DNA of 64,000 bases from contig JBMOPW010000014.1 of NCBI GenBank assembly GCA_049322915.1, positions 160,001 to 224,000 of the forward strand, read 5' to 3'. Position 1 is the stretch's first letter; every line of letters begins with the position of its first letter. Of this stretch, positions 34,751-46,402 are shown one piece after another. The stretch is from Candidatus Zhuqueibacterota bacterium (lineage in GTDB: Bacteria > Zhuqueibacterota > Zhuqueibacteria > Thermofontimicrobiales > Thermofontimicrobiaceae). The notes under the pieces are model-generated. The model was not told where the DNA came from and ran no database searches. It worked only from the letters and a program-made list of their open reading frames with translations. The position numbers and the translations under genes are program-made.

Positions 34751-36172
34751 ATGATTTGGACACCAGATGAAAAACCAAAAGAAGAATGTGCAGTTATTGG
34801 AATTTATGGACATCCCCAGGCCGCGACGTATGCGTATCTGGGATTGTATGCGTTGCAACATCGTGGACAGGAAAGTTCGGGCATTGTCACTCATGATCAT
34901 GGTCTTTTTTATAAACATATTGATTTGGGACTGGTCATGGATGTCTTCCGCAACCGTGCCAATCTTGACAGGTTAAAAGGCGATAAGGCAATCGGCCATA
35001 ATCGCTATTCCACGACAGGCTCCACACATTCGGTAAACGCTCAGCCGCTTGTCGTCAGTTCCAAGTGCGGACCATTGGCAATTTCCCATAATGGAAATTT
35101 CGTCGATTCGCAACTGTTCCGACGCAAACTGGAAGAAGATGGAGCCATATTTCAGACGACAACGGACACGGAAATTGTTCTCCATTTAATCGCCCGTTCC
35201 AAAAAGCAGACAATGATCGAAAAAGTCAAAGATGCTTTCAATCAGATTAAGGGCGCTTATTCCATTGCAATACTGACAAACAATGAACTCATCGGCGTTC
35301 GGGATCCGCGGGGATTTCGACCTTTGTGCATGGGCAAAAAGGATGGCGCCTATATTCTCGCGTCTGAGTCGTGCGCCCTGGATATTATGGACGCCGAGCT
35401 CATCCGGGAAATCGAACCAGGTGAAATTGTCGTTATAAACGATCAGGGCGTTACCAGTACTTTTCTCGAAGAGAAGGCGGAACGACGCGCCTGCATTTTT
35501 GAGTTCATCTACTTCTCCAGACCGGATAGCCTGATTTTTGGCGAGAAAGTGGATAAAGCGCGTCGCAAGCTGGGAAAATCCCTTTCATTGGAAGCGCCAG
35601 TGGAGGCTGACCGGATTATTTCGGTCCCCGACTCCAGCAATACTGCGGCGCTGGGATATGCTCAGGAATCCGGCATTAAATTCGAAATTGGTCTGATCAG
35701 GAACCATTATGTGGGCCGGACATTCATTCACCCGGTCCAGTCCATGCGCGATTTCAATGTACGGATTAAATTCAATCCGGTGAAAGGCGTATTGAAAAAC
35801 AAGCGCGTCATTATGGTGGAAGATTCCATTGTCCGCGGCACTACCTTGCGGCTGCTCGCCAAAATGGTGCGCAATGCCGGCGCTCAGGAAATTCATATTC
35901 GCGTCAGTTCACCGCCAATCAAATATCCCTGTTACTATGGCATGGATTTTCCGACCAAAGAAGAATTGATTGCCTCGCAGATGTCAATCGAAGAGATCCG
36001 AAAATATCTCGAAGTCGACAGCTTGCATTATCTCTCTATGGAGGGAATGCTGAACTCTGTTCCCCAGGAACCGGGTGGGTACTGCACAGCGTGTTTCAGC
36101 GGTGATTATCCGATAATTCCCGGCGAAGCGGTGAAGAAGTTCCAGTTAGAAAATGGCATTGTCAACGGCTGA
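34751..36172 (+). CDS. purF: Amidophosphoribosyltransferase (propeptide, Fe-S type)
   Basis: KEE-CAV N-terminal nucleophile after a short propeptide, LQHRGQES, GHNRYST, VEDSIVRGTT, Cys ligands CIFE/CYYG/CTAC. Confidence 0.98.
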   Translation: MIWTPDEKPKEECAVIGIYGHPQAATYAYLGLYALQHRGQESSGIVTHDHGLFYKHIDLGLVMDVFRNRANLDRLKGDKAIGHNRYSTTGSTHSVNAQPLVVSSKCGPLAISHNGNFVDSQLFRRKLEEDGAIFQTTTDTEIVLHLIARSKKQTMIEKVKDAFNQIKGAYSIAILTNNELIGVRDPRGFRPLCMGKKDGAYILASESCALDIMDAELIREIEPGEIVVINDQGVTSTFLEEKAERRACIFEFIYFSRPDSLIFGEKVDKARRKLGKSLSLEAPVEADRIISVPDSSNTAALGYAQESGIKFEIGLIRNHYVGRTFIHPVQSMRDFNVRIKFNPVKGVLKNKRVIMVEDSIVRGTTLRLLAKMVRNAGAQEIHIRVSSPPIKYPCYYGMDFPTKEELIASQMSIEEIRKYLEVDSLHYLSMEGMLNSVPQEPGGYCTACFSGDYPIIPGEAVKKFQLENGIVNG

Positions 36173-36202
36173 GGCCGCAGCGATGGGCCTCGCGGGCCAT
36201 TT

Positions 36203-37201
36203 TTGTCATTGATGAAACGGTTCGCTCGCAATAACGCACGCGCCAATGAAAATGAGATGGTAAAAAACATCCAACTACTCGATTATGTTTTTATCCTTAG
36301 GCCGACTCTCTTCTTCCCCTTGTGGACCGTGTACCTGGCCGGTTTTCATGCGAACACCGTGTTTGACCCGGCGAGAGAATCGTCGCAGGCTACTGCTACG
36401 TCGGGGAGTCATGTTTTTTTCATTGCAGCGCTATTGACTCTGCTCATGGGCGCGGTGTATATTTTCAACCAGATTGTGGATATAAAGAGCGATGAAAGAA
36501 ATGATAAATTGTTTTTCATCGCCAAAAAGATAATCGACAAAAAGACCGCGACAATCGAGGGCGTCCTGCTCACCGTGATTTCCATCGGGACGGCGTTTGT
36601 CGTTGACGCCAAAGTAGGCGCGATGTTTGTCTGGATTTTTCTCATTACCGGGATTTTGTACAGCTACAAACCATTCGCCTGGAAAGACCGGCCGATTATG
36701 GGTGCGGTGGCCAATTTCCTGGGCGGCTGGTCAGTTGCTTCGTGCGGATGGATAACTGCCGGAACAGAAAGTTATCATTTCGCGCTGTACAGCCTTCCCT
36801 ACGGTTTCGGCCTGGTCGCCGTGTATTTGTTAACAACGATCCCCGATATTCCGGGTGATCGTGAGTTCAATAAAATTACCTTTGGCGTGAAATTCGGAAA
36901 GATGAAAGCCGTCTGCTGGGGACTTGTTTTTGAACTGGCGACGGTGGTGCTTTCGTTCATTTTGAGAGATTATTTATTCTTCATCCCGGCGCTGTTCTCG
37001 CTTCCGCTATTCATCGCTGCCGCGGCGACGCAGGAGATGAAACATATTGTGAGAGCGATTAAATTCACTATCCTGTTCGTCTCATTGGCTGTGTGTCTGA
37101 AGTTCCCTGTATATTTTTTGGTGATTCTATTCACATTTTTCTTTTCAAAATGGTACTACCAAAAACGGTTTGGCTTGAACTATCCGAAATTTGCTGCTTG
37201 A
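36203..37201 (+). CDS. UbiA-superfamily membrane prenyltransferase
   Basis: Multiple TM helices; Asp-rich motifs NQIVDIKSD (NxxxDxxxD) and PDIPGD; LYS..P. True start may be 36257. Confidence 0.85.
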   Translation: MSLMKRFARNNARANENEMVKNIQLLDYVFILRPTLFFPLWTVYLAGFHANTVFDPARESSQATATSGSHVFFIAALLTLLMGAVYIFNQIVDIKSDERNDKLFFIAKKIIDKKTATIEGVLLTVISIGTAFVVDAKVGAMFVWIFLITGILYSYKPFAWKDRPIMGAVANFLGGWSVASCGWITAGTESYHFALYSLPYGFGLVAVYLLTTIPDIPGDREFNKITFGVKFGKMKAVCWGLVFELATVVLSFILRDYLFFIPALFSLPLFIAAAATQEMKHIVRAIKFTILFVSLAVCLKFPVYFLVILFTFFFSKWYYQKRFGLNYPKFAA

Positions 37202-37222
37202 AATCAGGTCTGAGGAATATTC

Positions 37223-37402
37223 ATGATAGTCAGTAAAAATGATCGCTGTGATTTTTGCGGAACCTGCGTGGCAGTCTGTCCGGTCGATGCCATTACACTA
37301 TATGAGGCTCGACTTGAAATTGACCACGATCTCTGCACGCTGTGCCTGAATTGCGTCCATATCTGTCCTGTCTCAGCGCTGGAGGAGAAAGAAGATGAGT
37401 GA
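37223..37402 (+). CDS. 2[4Fe-4S] ferredoxin, 59 aa (absent from the ORF track)
   Basis: Hand translation MIVSKNDRCDFCGTCVAVCPVDAITLYEARLEIDHDLCTLCLNCVHICPVSALEEKEDE* contains two CxxCxxCxxxCP motifs. SD GAGG; overlaps the next ATG by 8 nt. Confidence 0.92.
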   Translation: MIVSKNDRCDFCGTCVAVCPVDAITLYEARLEIDHDLCTLCLNCVHICPVSALEEKEDE

Positions 37403-38564
37403 TTATGATATCATCGTGGTTGGCGCTGGTCCGGCTGGCTCGACCACAGCGCGCCTGGCTGCCCAGCATGGCGCCAGAGTGTTGATGCTGGAAAAAGACC
37501 GGGAGGTCGGAATCCCGGTTCGATGCGGCGAAGCCGTCGGCGCGAAAGGATTTAGCCGCGTGCTCGAATTGCGGGACGAGTGGGTGGCCAATAAAATTGA
37601 TGCGGTGCGACTCGTCGCGCCGGATGGCACGAAAATTAAAGTCTCGCACGACGATATCGGTTATATTCTGGATCGCAAGCGTTTCGATTACGACCTGGCC
37701 CGCATGGCAACCGAAAAAGGCGTCAAAGTGATCACCAAAGCATTTGTCTACGACATGCTCAAAGAGGACGGCGTTGTCGCCGGCGTGAAAGTGAATCACC
37801 TGGGTAAACAGTATTCCATAAAATCGCGGCTGGTAATTGGAGCCGATGGCGTGGAATCGCGCGTGGGGCGCTGGGCTGGTTTGAAAACCGCCGTCAGGAT
37901 GAAGGATATTGAACCGTGCGTTCAAATGACCGTGTCCAATATCAATATCGACGGGAATGTCTGTGATTTTTATGTGTCGCGGGAATTAGCGCCCGGCGGA
38001 TACCTGTGGGTGTTTCCCAAGAGCGCGCACCACGCCAATATCGGATTGGGAATTTCCGGGGAATTTGCGCATCAAAAATCCCCGCTGGAATATCTCCAGG
38101 AATTCATGGACAAAAATTTCCCTGAAGCCGCAATATTGACGACCGTTGCCGGCGGAGTCCCTTGCGCTCCGTATATGGAAGAAATCGTTGCGCCGGGACT
38201 CATGCTGGTGGGCGATGCAGCGCATCAGGTAAATCCCATCACCGGCGGGGGAATCATTCATAGCATTCTCGCCGGTGAAATTGCCGGCAAAGTGGCAGCA
38301 GCAGCCATCAAGGAGCGCGATGTCTCGGGAGCGCGGTTGACCGAATACGTCCGGGACTGGGATAAAATTGGGGGGATAGGCCATCGTCATGCCTATCGCT
38401 TGAAAGAAGCAGTGTACAAACTGACGGATGATGACCTGAATAAAACTGCGGCCACGTTGAAGAAAAAAACTCAGGATACTTACACCATTGTGAATATATT
38501 TAAAACAGCCCTGTTCCAGCATCCTAAATTAATACCGGATATTTTGAAAGTGTTTTTGGGATGA
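37395..38564 (+). CDS. Geranylgeranyl reductase family flavoprotein, archaeal digeranylgeranylglycerophospholipid reductase-like
   Basis: VVGAGPAGS, PVRCGE, DRKRFD, IGADG, APGGYLWVFPK (PxxYxWxFP), VGDAAHQVNPITGGGI. Confidence 0.85.
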   Translation: MSDYDIIVVGAGPAGSTTARLAAQHGARVLMLEKDREVGIPVRCGEAVGAKGFSRVLELRDEWVANKIDAVRLVAPDGTKIKVSHDDIGYILDRKRFDYDLARMATEKGVKVITKAFVYDMLKEDGVVAGVKVNHLGKQYSIKSRLVIGADGVESRVGRWAGLKTAVRMKDIEPCVQMTVSNINIDGNVCDFYVSRELAPGGYLWVFPKSAHHANIGLGISGEFAHQKSPLEYLQEFMDKNFPEAAILTTVAGGVPCAPYMEEIVAPGLMLVGDAAHQVNPITGGGIIHSILAGEIAGKVAAAAIKERDVSGARLTEYVRDWDKIGGIGHRHAYRLKEAVYKLTDDDLNKTAATLKKKTQDTYTIVNIFKTALFQHPKLIPDILKVFLG

Positions 38565-38690: not shown

Positions 38691-39620
38691 ATGATCGGCA
38701 AATTAAAGCAGCGGTTGGCAAAGACACGGGAAAACCTTGTTAAAAAATTAAGCGATGCATTGAGGTCGCATAAAGAGATCAATCAGGATTTGTATGACGA
38801 AATGGAAGAAGTGCTCATCGGCGGCGATGTGGGCGTCGAGGTTGCGATGGATTTGATCGAAGAAGTCCGGAAGCAGGTCCGATCTCAGGGAATTAAAAAG
38901 CCGGATGAAATCATTCAGCTTTTAAAAGACGCCATGTTCCGCTCATTCAATGAGGGAAAAGCGCCGATTTCATCGGATGCGACAGCAGACTTTTTCAAAC
39001 CGGAGCCAAAGCCCTTCGTCATCATGGTTGTTGGCGTGAACGGCACGGGCAAGACCACGACAATCGGCAAGCTAGCCTCGCTGTACAAACAGCAGAGCAA
39101 CAAGGTCCTCCTTTCTGCAGCAGATACGTTTCGCGCGGCTGCATCGGAGCAACTGGAAATCTGGGCGCAGCGAGCCGGTGTGGATATTATTCGCAACCAG
39201 CCGGGAGCAGACCCGGCGTCCATCGCTTTCGATTCATTACAGGCGGCCATCAGCCGAAAACTGGATGTGCTGATCATCGACACGGCCGGTCGGTTGCACA
39301 CCAAATCCAATTTGATGGAGGAATTGAAAAAAATTTATCGCGTGTTGGGGAAAATCAATCCGGCAATTCCCCACGAAACCCTGCTGGTCCTGGACGCCAC
39401 CACTGGCCAGAACGGACTGAATCAGGCGCTGCAATTTACGCAGGCGGTGAATGTGACCGGCATTATTTTGACAAAGCTGGATGGCACAGCAAAAGGAGGC
39501 ATTGTCCTGGCCATCAGCAAGCAGTTGGGATTGCCGGTCAAATTCATTGGAGTCGGCGAGAAAGTGGAGGACCTGGAGCCGTTCGATCGCACCGAGTTTG
39601 TCGAGGCGTTGTTTCAATGA
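38691..39620 (+). CDS. ftsY: Signal recognition particle receptor FtsY
   Basis: [37 protein letters not shown]. Confidence 0.98.
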
Positions 39621-43347: not shown

Positions 43348-43971
43348 ATGGAAAAACTTCAATTGGGAGTGTTGGCTTCCGGCCGTGGTTCCAATTTCGA
43401 AGCGATAGTCAAACAGATCAAGCGGAGGAAATTGGATGCTGAGGTTCGGGCCGTCATCAGCAATATTGCCACCGCCGGAGTGCTGGAAATAGCGCGGAAG
43501 AACAATATCCCGGCGTTTCACGTTTCAAAAAAACAGTTTCCGGAACAGGAGCATTTTGATGCCGAGCTCCTGAAAATTCTTCTCGACCATCAGGTGAACT
43601 TTGTGGTGCTGGCCGGATATTTGAAAATGCTGAGTCCGATCATTGTGAGGCAGTTTAAAAATCGAATATTGAATATTCACCCGGCGCTGTTGCCGTCATT
43701 TGGTGGTCATGGGATGTATGGCCATCATGTGCATCAGGCGGTGCTGGATTATGGCTGCAAGGTGAGCGGGGTGACGGTGCATCTGGTGGACGAAGCCTAT
43801 GACACAGGCGCGCCGGTGATGCAGCGCTGCGTTCCGGTGCATGAAGGGGATACGGCGGAAACCCTGGCTTCCCGCGTGTTGAAAGTTGAACATCAAATTT
43901 ATTCCGAAGCGCTCCAACTGTTCGCCGAGGGCCGGGTTGAAATTAACGGACGCTGCGTAAAAATCAAGTGA
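43348..43971 (+). CDS. purN: Phosphoribosylglycinamide formyltransferase
   Basis: SGRGSN, LAGY, NIHPALLP, GVTVH.V...YDTG. Confidence 0.97.
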   Translation: MEKLQLGVLASGRGSNFEAIVKQIKRRKLDAEVRAVISNIATAGVLEIARKNNIPAFHVSKKQFPEQEHFDAELLKILLDHQVNFVVLAGYLKMLSPIIVRQFKNRILNIHPALLPSFGGHGMYGHHVHQAVLDYGCKVSGVTVHLVDEAYDTGAPVMQRCVPVHEGDTAETLASRVLKVEHQIYSEALQLFAEGRVEINGRCVKIK

Positions 43972-44845: not shown

Positions 44846-46402
44846 ATGGAAAAAATGAAGCGAGTTTTGATCAGTGTCTATGACAAGCAAGGCATTGTGG
44901 AATTTGCCCGGTTCCTGAAGCAATTCGATATGGATATAATTTCCACCGGTGGCACTTCGAAGCTGCTGAAACAAAATGGTATTCCCTGTCTTTCAGTGTC
45001 TGAGATTACCGGAGCGCCGGAGATGCTGGATGGGCGCGTCAAAACGCTGCATCCCAAAATTCATGGTGCAATTCTTGCCAAGCGCGACAACAAAGATCAT
45101 ATGGCCCAGTTGAAAGAGCACGGAATGGCGCTCATCGATATGGTGGTCATCAATCTTTATCCCTTCGAAAGCGTTGTCAGCAAACCGAATGTCGAATTGA
45201 GTGAGGCTCTGGAAAATATCGATATCGGCGGGCCGACCATGGTTCGGGCCGCTGCCAAGAATTTCAAATCGGTGGCTGTGGTGATTTCGCCTTCGCAGTA
45301 CCAGGCGGTGATGGATCATATGTCCCAGCATAGCGGGGAGTTGAGCGATGCCCTGCGGAAGACTCTGGCCATTGAAGCATTCCGACTGACGCACCTGTAT
45401 GATGGCGCGATAACGCGCTACCTGCAAAGTCTGGAGAGCGGCGCGGCCTATCCGAAAAACATCGTGCTGAGTTTTGAGAAAATACAGGACCTGCGTTACG
45501 GAGAGAATCCCCACCAGTCCGCGGCGTTTTATCGGGAGCTTGGCTCGAATTCGAGCGGCATTACCAATTTGGAGCAACTGCACGGAAAGGAGCTATCCTA
45601 TAACAACATCATGGATCTGGATGCAGTTGTGAAAATGGTGCATACTTTCGGGGAGCCTTGCTCGGTGATTGTCAAGCACAGCAACCCGTGCGGCGTGGCG
45701 ATTGGGGAGAATATCTGCTCCGCTTTTGAAAAGGCGTTTGCCACGGATTCGGTCTCGGCGTTCGGAGGCATTTTTGGGTTTAACCGTCCGGTGGATTTGA
45801 AGACAGCGGAATTGCTAAAAGATATTTTTATTGAAGTGATCGTGGCGCCGGCGTATGAACCGGATGCCCTTCAGGTTTTGTCGAAGAAGAAAAACGTGAG
45901 ATTGTTGAAATTAGAGTTGGGACAGACGCTGCCCAAAGAAAATAATTATCGCAAAGTAGCCGGGGGATTGTTAATTCAGAGTGAAGATATTAAAAGCATT
46001 GACGATATAGAATTTAAAGTTGTCTCGAACCGGCAACCCACACCCGATGAATGGGCTGCGCTGAAATTTGGCTGGCGCGTTGTGAAATGGGTGAAGTCCA
46101 ACGCAGTCATTTTCTGTCGAAGCGACCGAACGATAGGCATTGGCGCCGGCCAGATGTCCCGAGTCGATTCCTCCCGATTTGCTGTGGATAAAGCCAGTCG
46201 GGCTAATCTGGACTTGACCAGCACTGCAGTCGCATCGGATGCATTTTTCCCATTTCGCGATGGCGTGGATGCGGCGGCGGAAGCAGGCGCCACAGCGGTG
46301 ATTCAGCCCGGCGGTTCTGTGCGGGATGACGAAGTGATACAGGCTGCGAATGAATTGAACCTGGCGATGGTATTTACCGGGGTTCGGCATTTCAGACATT
46401 AA
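44846..46402 (+). CDS. purH: Bifunctional AICAR transformylase/IMP cyclohydrolase
   Basis: ISTGGT, GRVKTLHP, IDIGGP, LRYGENPHQ, SDAFFPF, RHFRH. Confidence 0.98.
   Translation: MEKMKRVLISVYDKQGIVEFARFLKQFDMDIISTGGTSKLLKQNGIPCLSVSEITGAPEMLDGRVKTLHPKIHGAILAKRDNKDHMAQLKEHGMALIDMVVINLYPFESVVSKPNVELSEALENIDIGGPTMVRAAAKNFKSVAVVISPSQYQAVMDHMSQHSGELSDALRKTLAIEAFRLTHLYDGAITRYLQSLESGAAYPKNIVLSFEKIQDLRYGENPHQSAAFYRELGSNSSGITNLEQLHGKELSYNNIMDLDAVVKMVHTFGEPCSVIVKHSNPCGVAIGENICSAFEKAFATDSVSAFGGIFGFNRPVDLKTAELLKDIFIEVIVAPAYEPDALQVLSKKKNVRLLKLELGQTLPKENNYRKVAGGLLIQSEDIKSIDDIEFKVVSNRQPTPDEWAALKFGWRVVKWVKSNAVIFCRSDRTIGIGAGQMSRVDSSRFAVDKASRANLDLTSTAVASDAFFPFRDGVDAAAEAGATAVIQPGGSVRDDEVIQAANELNLAMVFTGVRHFRH

Follow-up and report, generated by a model that had tools for sequence, protein, structure and literature searches.

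A conserved prenyltransferase, ferredoxin and geranylgeranyl reductase operon in a Candidatus Zhuqueibacterota genome probably contributes to saturated isoprenoid membrane lipids

A 64,000-nucleotide stretch of the genome of a Candidatus Zhuqueibacterota bacterium (the window; positions 160001-224000 of contig JBMOPW010000014.1, here C14, of the 6.25-Mb, 96.3%-complete assembly G000) was found to carry three adjoining genes for a UbiA-superfamily prenyltransferase, a ferredoxin and a geranylgeranyl reductase (GGR). This trio is a real, conserved operon that probably helps to make saturated isoprenoid membrane lipids, extending the idea, already published in general form (Villanueva et al. 2020; Coleman et al. 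2019), that bacteria of the Fibrobacteres-Chlorobi-Bacteroidetes (FCB) group form archaeal-like lipids. On balance, the trio seems to belong to an isoprenoid phospholipid pathway, whichever acceptor receives the prenyl chain. In what follows, C-labels denote contigs of the window's genome, L-labels loci of relatives, G-labels genomes and f-labels families of the window's phylum. The genes of the trio are listed below in window coordinates, with an alternative start for the first.

36257..37201, plus strand: UbiA-superfamily membrane prenyltransferase of an FCB-group clade ("C14-type"), 314 aa from an ATG start
36203..37201, plus strand: the same gene read from an alternative upstream TTG start, 332 aa
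37223..37402, plus strand: 2x[4Fe-4S] ferredoxin, presumed electron donor of the reductase, 59 aa
37395..38564, plus strand: predicted flavin adenine dinucleotide (FAD)-dependent GGR, archaeal lipid-reductase type, 389 aa

The ATG at 36257 appears the likelier start of the prenyltransferase gene, because the gene call of the sequence collection (P0001) is 314 aa long and homologues align from this position. The tight linkage claimed in a preliminary description of this DNA was recovered with the same values from the open reading frame (ORF) listing, with all three genes on one strand: prenyltransferase and ferredoxin are separated by 21 nt (37202-37222), and the ferredoxin and reductase genes overlap by 8 nt (37395-37402). 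Shine-Dalgarno-like sequences precede both the ferredoxin start (GAGGAA) and the reductase start (GGAGGAG). We infer the boundaries of the operon from gene spacing; promoter-like sites (6 versus 3.6 +/- 1.8 in shuffled sequence) and terminator-like sites (4 versus 3.5 +/- 1.8) near the trio were no more frequent than in the shuffles.

Conservation of the arrangement was assessed in relatives by a context scan with one genome per species, which gave 116 confirmed loci, 80 of which were kept. The order UbiA-ferredoxin-GGR was observed in the same orientation in 51 of these 80 loci, from several phyla, and is therefore beyond chance. Gaps between the matches of the trio were mostly below 60 nt. 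The remaining loci comprised one with UbiA and ferredoxin only, two with GGR upstream, 20 with neither partner and six that were too short downstream to be judged. Of the 51 trio loci, 40 have purF as well as ftsY as flanks and four, three of them from Marinimicrobia, have neither gene. In L078 the order is reversed, GGR preceding UbiA.

A further partner recurs in these neighbourhoods. A cytidine diphosphate (CDP)-alcohol phosphatidyltransferase gene was detected by tblastn downstream in 40 of the 80 loci, following the trio in 33 of 51, in many relatives between GGR and ftsY, and following UbiA in 7 of the 20 loci that have no ferredoxin and GGR. All six sampled ORFs of this kind matched PF01066, and three of three scored 95.7-103.6 bits on pgsA (cut-off 109.1). 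In seven loci (L032, L035, L042, L046, L048, L049 and L073) ferredoxin and GGR are absent between UbiA and the phosphatidyltransferase gene with purF/ftsY still in place, as if lipid saturation had been cleanly lost; this matches families f8 and f10, which have no GGR orthologue.

Other companions of UbiA were seen outside this frame. Five Zixibacteria-type loci (L074, L075, L082, L083 and L090) read uppS-cdsA-UbiA, followed by a radical S-adenosylmethionine (SAM) gene of the AmmeMemoRadiSam system (TIGR04337, 312 bits); other parts of that system occur at L096:7016-8465, in the order UbiA-Memo-AMMECR1, and the window's own genome has the full system on C6, with another copy of the radical SAM gene on C44, some 10 kb away from cdsA. 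ORFs downstream of Bacteroidota UbiA genes matched no Pfam or NCBIfam family. At L087:6917-7081, UbiA is followed by a ferredoxin gene and no GGR, with accD and a phosphorylase gene downstream on the opposite strand. At L081:3244-5670, a fragment of an FAD-oxidoreductase and a protein with an MvhD/FlpD and a 4Fe-4S ferredoxin domain precede the UbiA orthologue, and these may represent a different electron-transfer partner.

The reductase matched the GG-red-SF model TIGR02032 at 230.6 bits (cut-off 158.8), the only match above that cut-off in the genome, and the Pfam family GGR_cat (PF22578) at 93 bits (cut-off 27). Its top models were those of archaeal digeranylgeranylglycerophospholipid reductases, NF041160 (DGGPL_Thplmales; 260.9 bits) and NF041080 (190.9 bits), and because the cut-offs of 780 and 580 were missed it is not filed under these archaeal equivalogs. 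It scored 138 bits on BchP-ChlP, 70.3 on ChlP (cut-off 505) and 53 on FixC, and at 57.2 bits against an equivalog cut-off of 700 it is not a MenJ. Among solved structures, that of the Thermoplasma acidophilum enzyme (3oz2) is the closest, with a full-length match of 252 bits, and the Sulfolobus GGR structure matched at about 108 bits. The preliminary description had called the protein an archaeal-type reductase, to be compared with MenJ, ChlP and FixC, and both the model scores and the match to 3oz2 agree with that assignment. The motifs that it had cited, PVRCGE with its Cys and APGGYLWVFPK, are present in the translation together with the FAD-binding GxGxxG; the catalytic Cys (C44) and the residues of YxWxFPK (Y203, W205, F207, P208 and K209) were unchanged in all 19 orthologues aligned.

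The ferredoxin matched Fer4 at 59.5 bits (cut-off 21.1) and FdxA_fam at 46.9 bits (cut-off 65), and carries two CxxCxxCxxxCP motifs within its 59 aa (C9/C12/C15/C19-P and C38/C41/C44/C48-P). In euryarchaea, the Methanosarcina acetivorans GGR requires a ferredoxin encoded at its own locus, and the loci of the Archaeoglobus fulgidus and T. acidophilum enzymes likewise contain 4Fe-4S genes, according to the treatment of these enzymes in a review (PMC10821996). Ferredoxin and GGR of the window can be regarded, on sequence grounds, as a conserved, translationally coupled pair of this euryarchaeal lipid-reductase type, predicted to work like the euryarchaeal lipid-saturation module, and hence as a new bacterial case of a module already known.

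The first gene of the trio encodes a UbiA-superfamily member (PF01040, 72 bits; gathering cut-off 34.2). The Asp-rich motifs NxxxDxxxD and DxxxD that a review describes for this superfamily (PMC9385802) are found as N71-Q-x2-D75-x3-D79 and D197-x3-D201, invariant in 18 of 18 aligned members. An AlphaFold2 model was all-helical, with a predicted local distance difference test score (pLDDT) of 89.9 and a predicted template-modelling score (pTM) of 0.88, and a Foldseek comparison with the PDB returned 4tq4, 6m31, 8djk and 4od4 at template-modelling (TM) scores of 0.61-0.68, the top match being the orphan AfUbiA; this comparison supports the UbiA fold but fails to separate the candidate acceptor classes. 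A predicted complex of UbiA and GGR scored 0.00, which is uninformative in either direction. Used as a single sequence, UbiA matched no PDB chain at E<=0.01; scores of the family profile were 62.8 bits for AfUbiA, 46 for chlorophyll synthase and 37 for the digeranylgeranylglyceryl phosphate (DGGGP) synthase MjDGGGPS. No NCBIfam equivalog was reached, the top score being 41 bits for homogentisate phytyltransferase. The protein is predicted to be an intact prenyl-diphosphate transferase of the Mg-dependent type, belonging to a distinct clade.

These scores raise the possibility of a phytyl-type transfer, in which GGR would reduce geranylgeranyl diphosphate to a partly saturated diphosphate and UbiA would move it to a carboxylate, an aromatic or some other head group. 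The nearest curated models of 18 family members were ChlG (18/18, best E 2.5e-19), BchG (18/18), PRK12875 (17/18, best E 6e-22), PRK12884 and homogentisate phytyltransferase (16/18), the UbiA profile scores chlorophyll synthase above MjDGGGPS, and one family member occurs in the green sulfur bacterium Chloroherpeton thalassium. All scores on these models lie far below the cut-offs (205-313 bits), however, and what accompanies UbiA in the operons of relatives are enzymes of phospholipid synthesis. Chlorophyll synthase and homogentisate phytyltransferase work with a ChlP-type GGR, whereas the window's GGR is closer to archaeal lipid reductases than to ChlP; carriers in these candidate phyla are, moreover, mostly non-phototrophic. 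A phytyl-type transfer is considered improbable on this evidence.

The relationship of UbiA to its paralogues was addressed with a maximum-likelihood tree of 48 UbiA proteins, comprising 26 of the window's clade (21 picked relatives and five from the diverse genomes G151-G155), 15 DGGGP synthase (DGGGPS)-like proteins (nine picked and six from the same genomes), four MenA-like and three decaprenyl-phosphate phosphoribosyltransferase-like proteins; a 176-aa fragment (L114) was excluded. The window's clade was supported at 97/97 and the DGGGPS-like clade at 100/99, and the MenA-like and phosphoribosyltransferase-like groups each formed one clade (100/99 and 100/100). The order of branching among the four clades had no support in this tree, in which no archaeal or chlorophyll-synthase reference sequences were included. 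As far as it overlaps with the phylogeny that had been proposed as a check, the tree sets UbiA apart from the MenA-like clade, and equally apart from the DGGGPS-like one.

The enzymes expected to accompany a diether pathway were sought across the whole genome. The preliminary description had noted that the window holds no synthase for geranylgeranylglyceryl phosphate (GGGP), which is correct: the genome's single PcrB/GGGP synthase (GGGPS) match lies elsewhere, at C32:71486-72247, and is above cut-off (TIGR01769, 229.7 bits; cut-off 161.55). Four UbiA genes were found, the window's, two MenA-like genes (such copies had also been looked for) and one DGGGPS-like gene at C3:93022-93891. On models of the DGGGPS type (cut-offs 296 and 269) the last reaches 216.5 and 233.8 bits; it matches MjDGGGPS (6m31) over its full length at 137 bits, and its relatives are named geranylgeranylglycerol-phosphate geranylgeranyltransferase by NCBI and JGI. 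On the DGGGPS models NF009521 and NF009523 the window's UbiA reached only 24.5 bits (cut-off 296) and 34.3 bits (cut-off 269). The notion that it is itself a DGGGP synthase is thus not supported by sequence, given these scores, the lack of a PDB match, its separate clade and the better candidate on C3. The idea that this genome could reach a diether solely through the window's UbiA was rejected as well, because the C3 paralogue exists.

A quinone module, in which UbiA would prenylate a naphtho- or benzoquinone head group and GGR would reduce the side chain in the manner of MenJ, had been offered as the alternative from the outset. Menaquinone-reducing GGR paralogues are discussed for archaea in a review (PMC10821996), and the genome has two MenA-like genes. 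On MenA models (cut-offs 102-264), however, the window's UbiA stays at 30-32 bits, it lies apart from the MenA-like clade, and GGR reaches only 57 bits on MenJ. In the 96.3%-complete genome, MqnA and MqnD had no match and MenB matches stopped at 158 bits (cut-off 342.7); because neither MenB above cut-off nor MqnA/D was found, the alternative is further disfavoured. Two of the diverse genomes (G154 and G155, of completeness not established) show only DGGGPS-like and window-type UbiA genes and none of the MenA-like type. With UbiA off the MenA-like clade and a GGGPS on C32, the findings that would have told for quinone synthesis were not obtained, and this explanation is regarded as very improbable.

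The distribution of the family was then compared with that of the other lipid genes. A word-index search gave 186 UbiA relatives at E<=1e-5, from sources including KSB1, Calditrichaeota and C. thalassium, and in an exhaustive profile search the number of clusters (50% identity) was 398 for E<=1e-30 and 1675 for E<=1e-10; the best 150 representatives of the latter search were UbiA family members only, and hence included no sister group. Atlas clusters, named "UbiA" only, were commonest in WOR-3, Bacteroidota (one with 3659 members), Zixibacteria and Fibrobacterota. Among 151 sampled genomes of the window's phylum, UbiA was found in 141, GGGPS in 143 and a DGGGPS-like gene in 141. GGR was found at E<=1e-30 in 139, of which 11 have weak, paralogue-level matches only (~1e-31 to 1e-34), and orthologues (best E<=1e-56) in 128. 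These tallies include G088 and G144, the removal of which shifts each count by at most 2. Eighteen of the 23 genomes without a GGR orthologue belong to families f8 and f10. Five diverse carriers (G151-G155: Zixibacteria, Bacteroidota, WOR-3, Marinimicrobia and one other bacterium) showed GGGPS in 4/5, GGR in 4/5, and both the DGGGPS-like gene and the window-type UbiA in 5/5. The window's UbiA belongs to a large clade restricted to the FCB group and is a predicted prenyltransferase core to its KSB1-like phylum.

In the reading favoured here, the three genes would be co-transcribed and would belong to a pathway for isoprenoid glycerophospholipids, one that is shared as a core trait by the KSB1-like phylum and occurs widely across the FCB group. 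The ferredoxin would pass electrons to the FAD enzyme, which would saturate C20 (geranylgeranyl) chains, and UbiA would prenylate a membrane lipid intermediate, most likely one based on glycerol phosphate (such as GGGP or a related lyso-lipid). Its product would be CDP-activated by CdsA and would then receive a head group from the PgsA-like CDP-alcohol phosphatidyltransferase, whose gene shares the operon in many relatives but is unlinked in the window's genome. Since UbiA recurs beside cdsA, a phosphatidyltransferase gene and a GGR of the lipid type together with its ferredoxin, it may be expected to make or modify the core of such a lipid; these partners represent the late steps of isoprenoid phospholipid synthesis, those that in archaea follow formation of the diether core, so that the context argues for a glycerophospholipid role. 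The GGR looks like an optional tailoring step, because f8 and f10 have cleanly lost ferredoxin and GGR yet keep GGGPS and both prenyltransferases. The earlier proposal that the module prenylates an acceptor and saturates the chain accordingly stands in outline, through the lipid-type ferredoxin-GGR pair, the GGGPS of the genome and the phospholipid context; its further suggestion of an archaeol-like product was not supported.

Several observations weigh against a glycerophospholipid role for the trio. UbiA enzymes cluster by acceptor, as described in a review (PMC9385802), and the window's protein groups apart from the DGGGPS-like clade, its nearest named models (ChlG/BchG and homogentisate phytyltransferase) being those of enzymes with non-glycerol acceptors. 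With the DGGGPS-like paralogue present on C3, the pathway on paper needs no extra enzyme, and a GGGPS or DGGGPS-like gene lay within about 6 kb of UbiA in 0 of the 80 loci. Of two further archaeal-type enzymes that had been looked for, neither was found in the 96.3%-complete genome: CarS had no PF01864 match, and for glycerol-1-phosphate dehydrogenase (G1PDH) the only two PF13685 (Fe-ADH_2) matches were explained as AroK/AroB and an Fe-alcohol dehydrogenase. The window holds no CDP-alcohol phosphatidyltransferase gene; it is missing at its usual site there, where the gap between GGR and ftsY is only 126 nt, and in its closest relatives, three of three sampled having a CsgG/TPR protein there. 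The canonical pgsA of the genome is on C32 (135.6 bits), and the genome's top match to the relatives' operon gene is a PgsA/ClsA-like paralogue on C16 (39% identity), the neighbours of which matched no Pfam or NCBIfam family.

The same caution applies to the synteny itself, which is largely a matter of vertical inheritance: with 40 of the 51 trio loci in a single purF...ftsY frame, they amount to few independent events and not to 51. It could be that linkage reflects inherited gene order without functional coupling, ferredoxin and GGR saturating lipids made by GGGPS and the C3 enzyme while UbiA serves an unrelated pathway, such as one for a polyprenyl-phosphate carrier or some other membrane metabolite. 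In favour of this, UbiA is retained in 17 of the 18 f8/f10 genomes that have no GGR orthologue, it does not adjoin GGR in those genomes of Zixibacteria and Bacteroidota that were examined, and a DGGGPS-like paralogue accompanies it in every one of the five diverse genomes checked. However, the linkage outlasts the purF/ftsY frame in Marinimicrobia and persists in reversed order in L078, and the gaps within the trio are tight. Furthermore, where ferredoxin and GGR are missing, UbiA still adjoins the phosphatidyltransferase gene (7 loci), and in Zixibacteria it follows cdsA, both of which are lipid contexts. Synteny without coupling was therefore judged unlikely, and membership of the trio in an isoprenoid phospholipid pathway was retained as the favoured reading.

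Within that reading, a simple "second DGGGPS" is disfavoured by the separate clade of UbiA, its slightly greater likeness to enzymes with non-glycerol acceptors and the existing DGGGPS-like paralogue. A bolder version may be put forward only tentatively, since we think it rather doubtful as a whole: that the UbiA clade, and not the DGGGPS-like paralogue, builds a bacterial isoprenoid phospholipid core, which is processed by CdsA and the PgsA-like enzyme and saturated by ferredoxin and GGR. UbiA could, for example, prenylate a mono-radyl lipid (acyl or prenyl) based on glycerol-3-phosphate, and the product, a hybrid ester/ether lipid or a glycerol-3-phosphate-based diether, shares the same doubt. 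If true, this would amount to a new enzyme activity and to a single lipid bridging the "lipid divide", core to several FCB phyla.

The surroundings of the trio in the window were also inspected, and the following features lie outside the module or at its edge.

34751..36172, plus strand: purF, conserved upstream flank (TIGR01134, 523.3 bits; cut-off 350)
36186..36198, plus strand: weak terminator-like hairpin with a T-run between purF and UbiA, uncertain
38691..39620, plus strand: ftsY, conserved downstream flank (TIGR00064, 371.9 bits; cut-off 260.7)

Together with rimO, which also flanks the trio (439.6 bits; cut-off 356.95), purF and ftsY exceed their NCBIfam cut-offs, in keeping with the core-gene setting described at first. 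The accompanying statement that signs of mobility are lacking agrees with the conserved synteny and the even GC content (0.498 over 36001-38000; 0.465-0.510 in adjoining windows), no scan aimed at mobile elements having been made. A horizontally acquired island was rejected on the even GC, the kept synteny and the phylum-core status of the UbiA gene. As a separate observation, the purine genes purF (34751-36172), purN (43348-43971) and purH (44846-46402) are scattered across 12 kb of the window, interleaved with the lipid trio, ftsY, rimO and genes for a GWxTD-domain protein and a muramoyltetrapeptide carboxypeptidase-like protein. Outside the window, one of the MenA-like UbiA genes directly adjoins the gene for a 574-aa B12-binding radical SAM protein (G000:C16:226317-228978, locus L115) of the Ta0216 type (TIGR04190, 639 bits; cut-off 500); no paper mentioning Ta0216 or TIGR04190 was found in the literature searched.

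Whether bacteria of the FCB group make archaeal-like or mixed membranes, and by which enzymes, is unsettled, and the locus adds a concrete piece to this question. GGGPS and DGGGPS orthologues are reported from all 12 FCB phyla surveyed by Coleman et al. 2019 (PMC6431249). In Escherichia coli, unsaturated archaetidylglycerol is formed by the GGGPS and DGGGPS of Cloacimonetes, and Cloacimonetes genomes hold GGRs related to euryarchaeal ones, as described by Villanueva et al. 2020 (PMC7852524). The present UbiA clade, and its operon with ferredoxin-GGR and a phosphatidyltransferase, were not found in the literature searched, which did not cover the supplementary trees of these two papers. Should the product of UbiA prove to be a glycerolipid, any use of isoprenoid ether lipids as archaeal biomarkers would have to allow for bacterial sources.

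Among known systems, the closest to the second half of the operon is the euryarchaeal GGR with its own ferredoxin, since here too a small 4Fe-4S ferredoxin gene directly adjoins that of the reductase; the present host is bacterial, however, and its GGR stays below the equivalog cut-off (260.9 versus 780). The T. acidophilum GGR resembles the window's enzyme over its full length, catalytic Cys and YxWxFP motif included, but is reviewed as using NADPH (PMC10821996), whereas a ferredoxin is the presumed electron donor of the window's GGR. For UbiA, the closest solved relative by both profile and Foldseek is AfUbiA (4tq3/4tq4), at only 16-18% identity; its natural acceptor could not be identified by the authors of the structure, as stated in their report (PMC4106721), and it therefore gives no functional lead. 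MjDGGGPS shares the fold (Foldseek TM 0.64) and the Asp-rich motifs, and in relatives the UbiA gene sits among the archaeal steps after DGGGP (CDP activation, head-group transfer and saturation), but the window's UbiA profile reaches it at 37 bits, against 137 bits for the C3 paralogue, and the two fall in separate clades. ChlG and homogentisate phytyltransferase share with the trio the pairing of a UbiA enzyme with a GGR and provide the nearest named models; their differences lie in the low scores, in a window GGR that is not ChlP-like (70 versus 505) and in the phospholipid enzymes that accompany UbiA in relatives.

The nearest precedent as a whole is the ether-lipid set of Candidatus Cloacimonetes (GGGPS, DGGGPS and GGR), which belongs to the same superphylum and resembles the GGGPS, DGGGPS-like and GGR genes of the window's genome. 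CarS was undetected there according to PMC7852524, as in the window's genome, and the absence of G1PDH from the latter likewise agrees with most of the FCB phyla in the account of Coleman et al. 2019 (PMC6431249). In that published work GGGPS and DGGGPS are co-localised in Cloacimonetes only, whereas in the window's genome the GGGPS and DGGGPS-like genes lie on separate contigs, away from the trio. The Cloacimonetes set differs, finally, in that the GGR gene of the window shares its operon with genes for a ferredoxin and for a third prenyltransferase, which belongs to a different clade.

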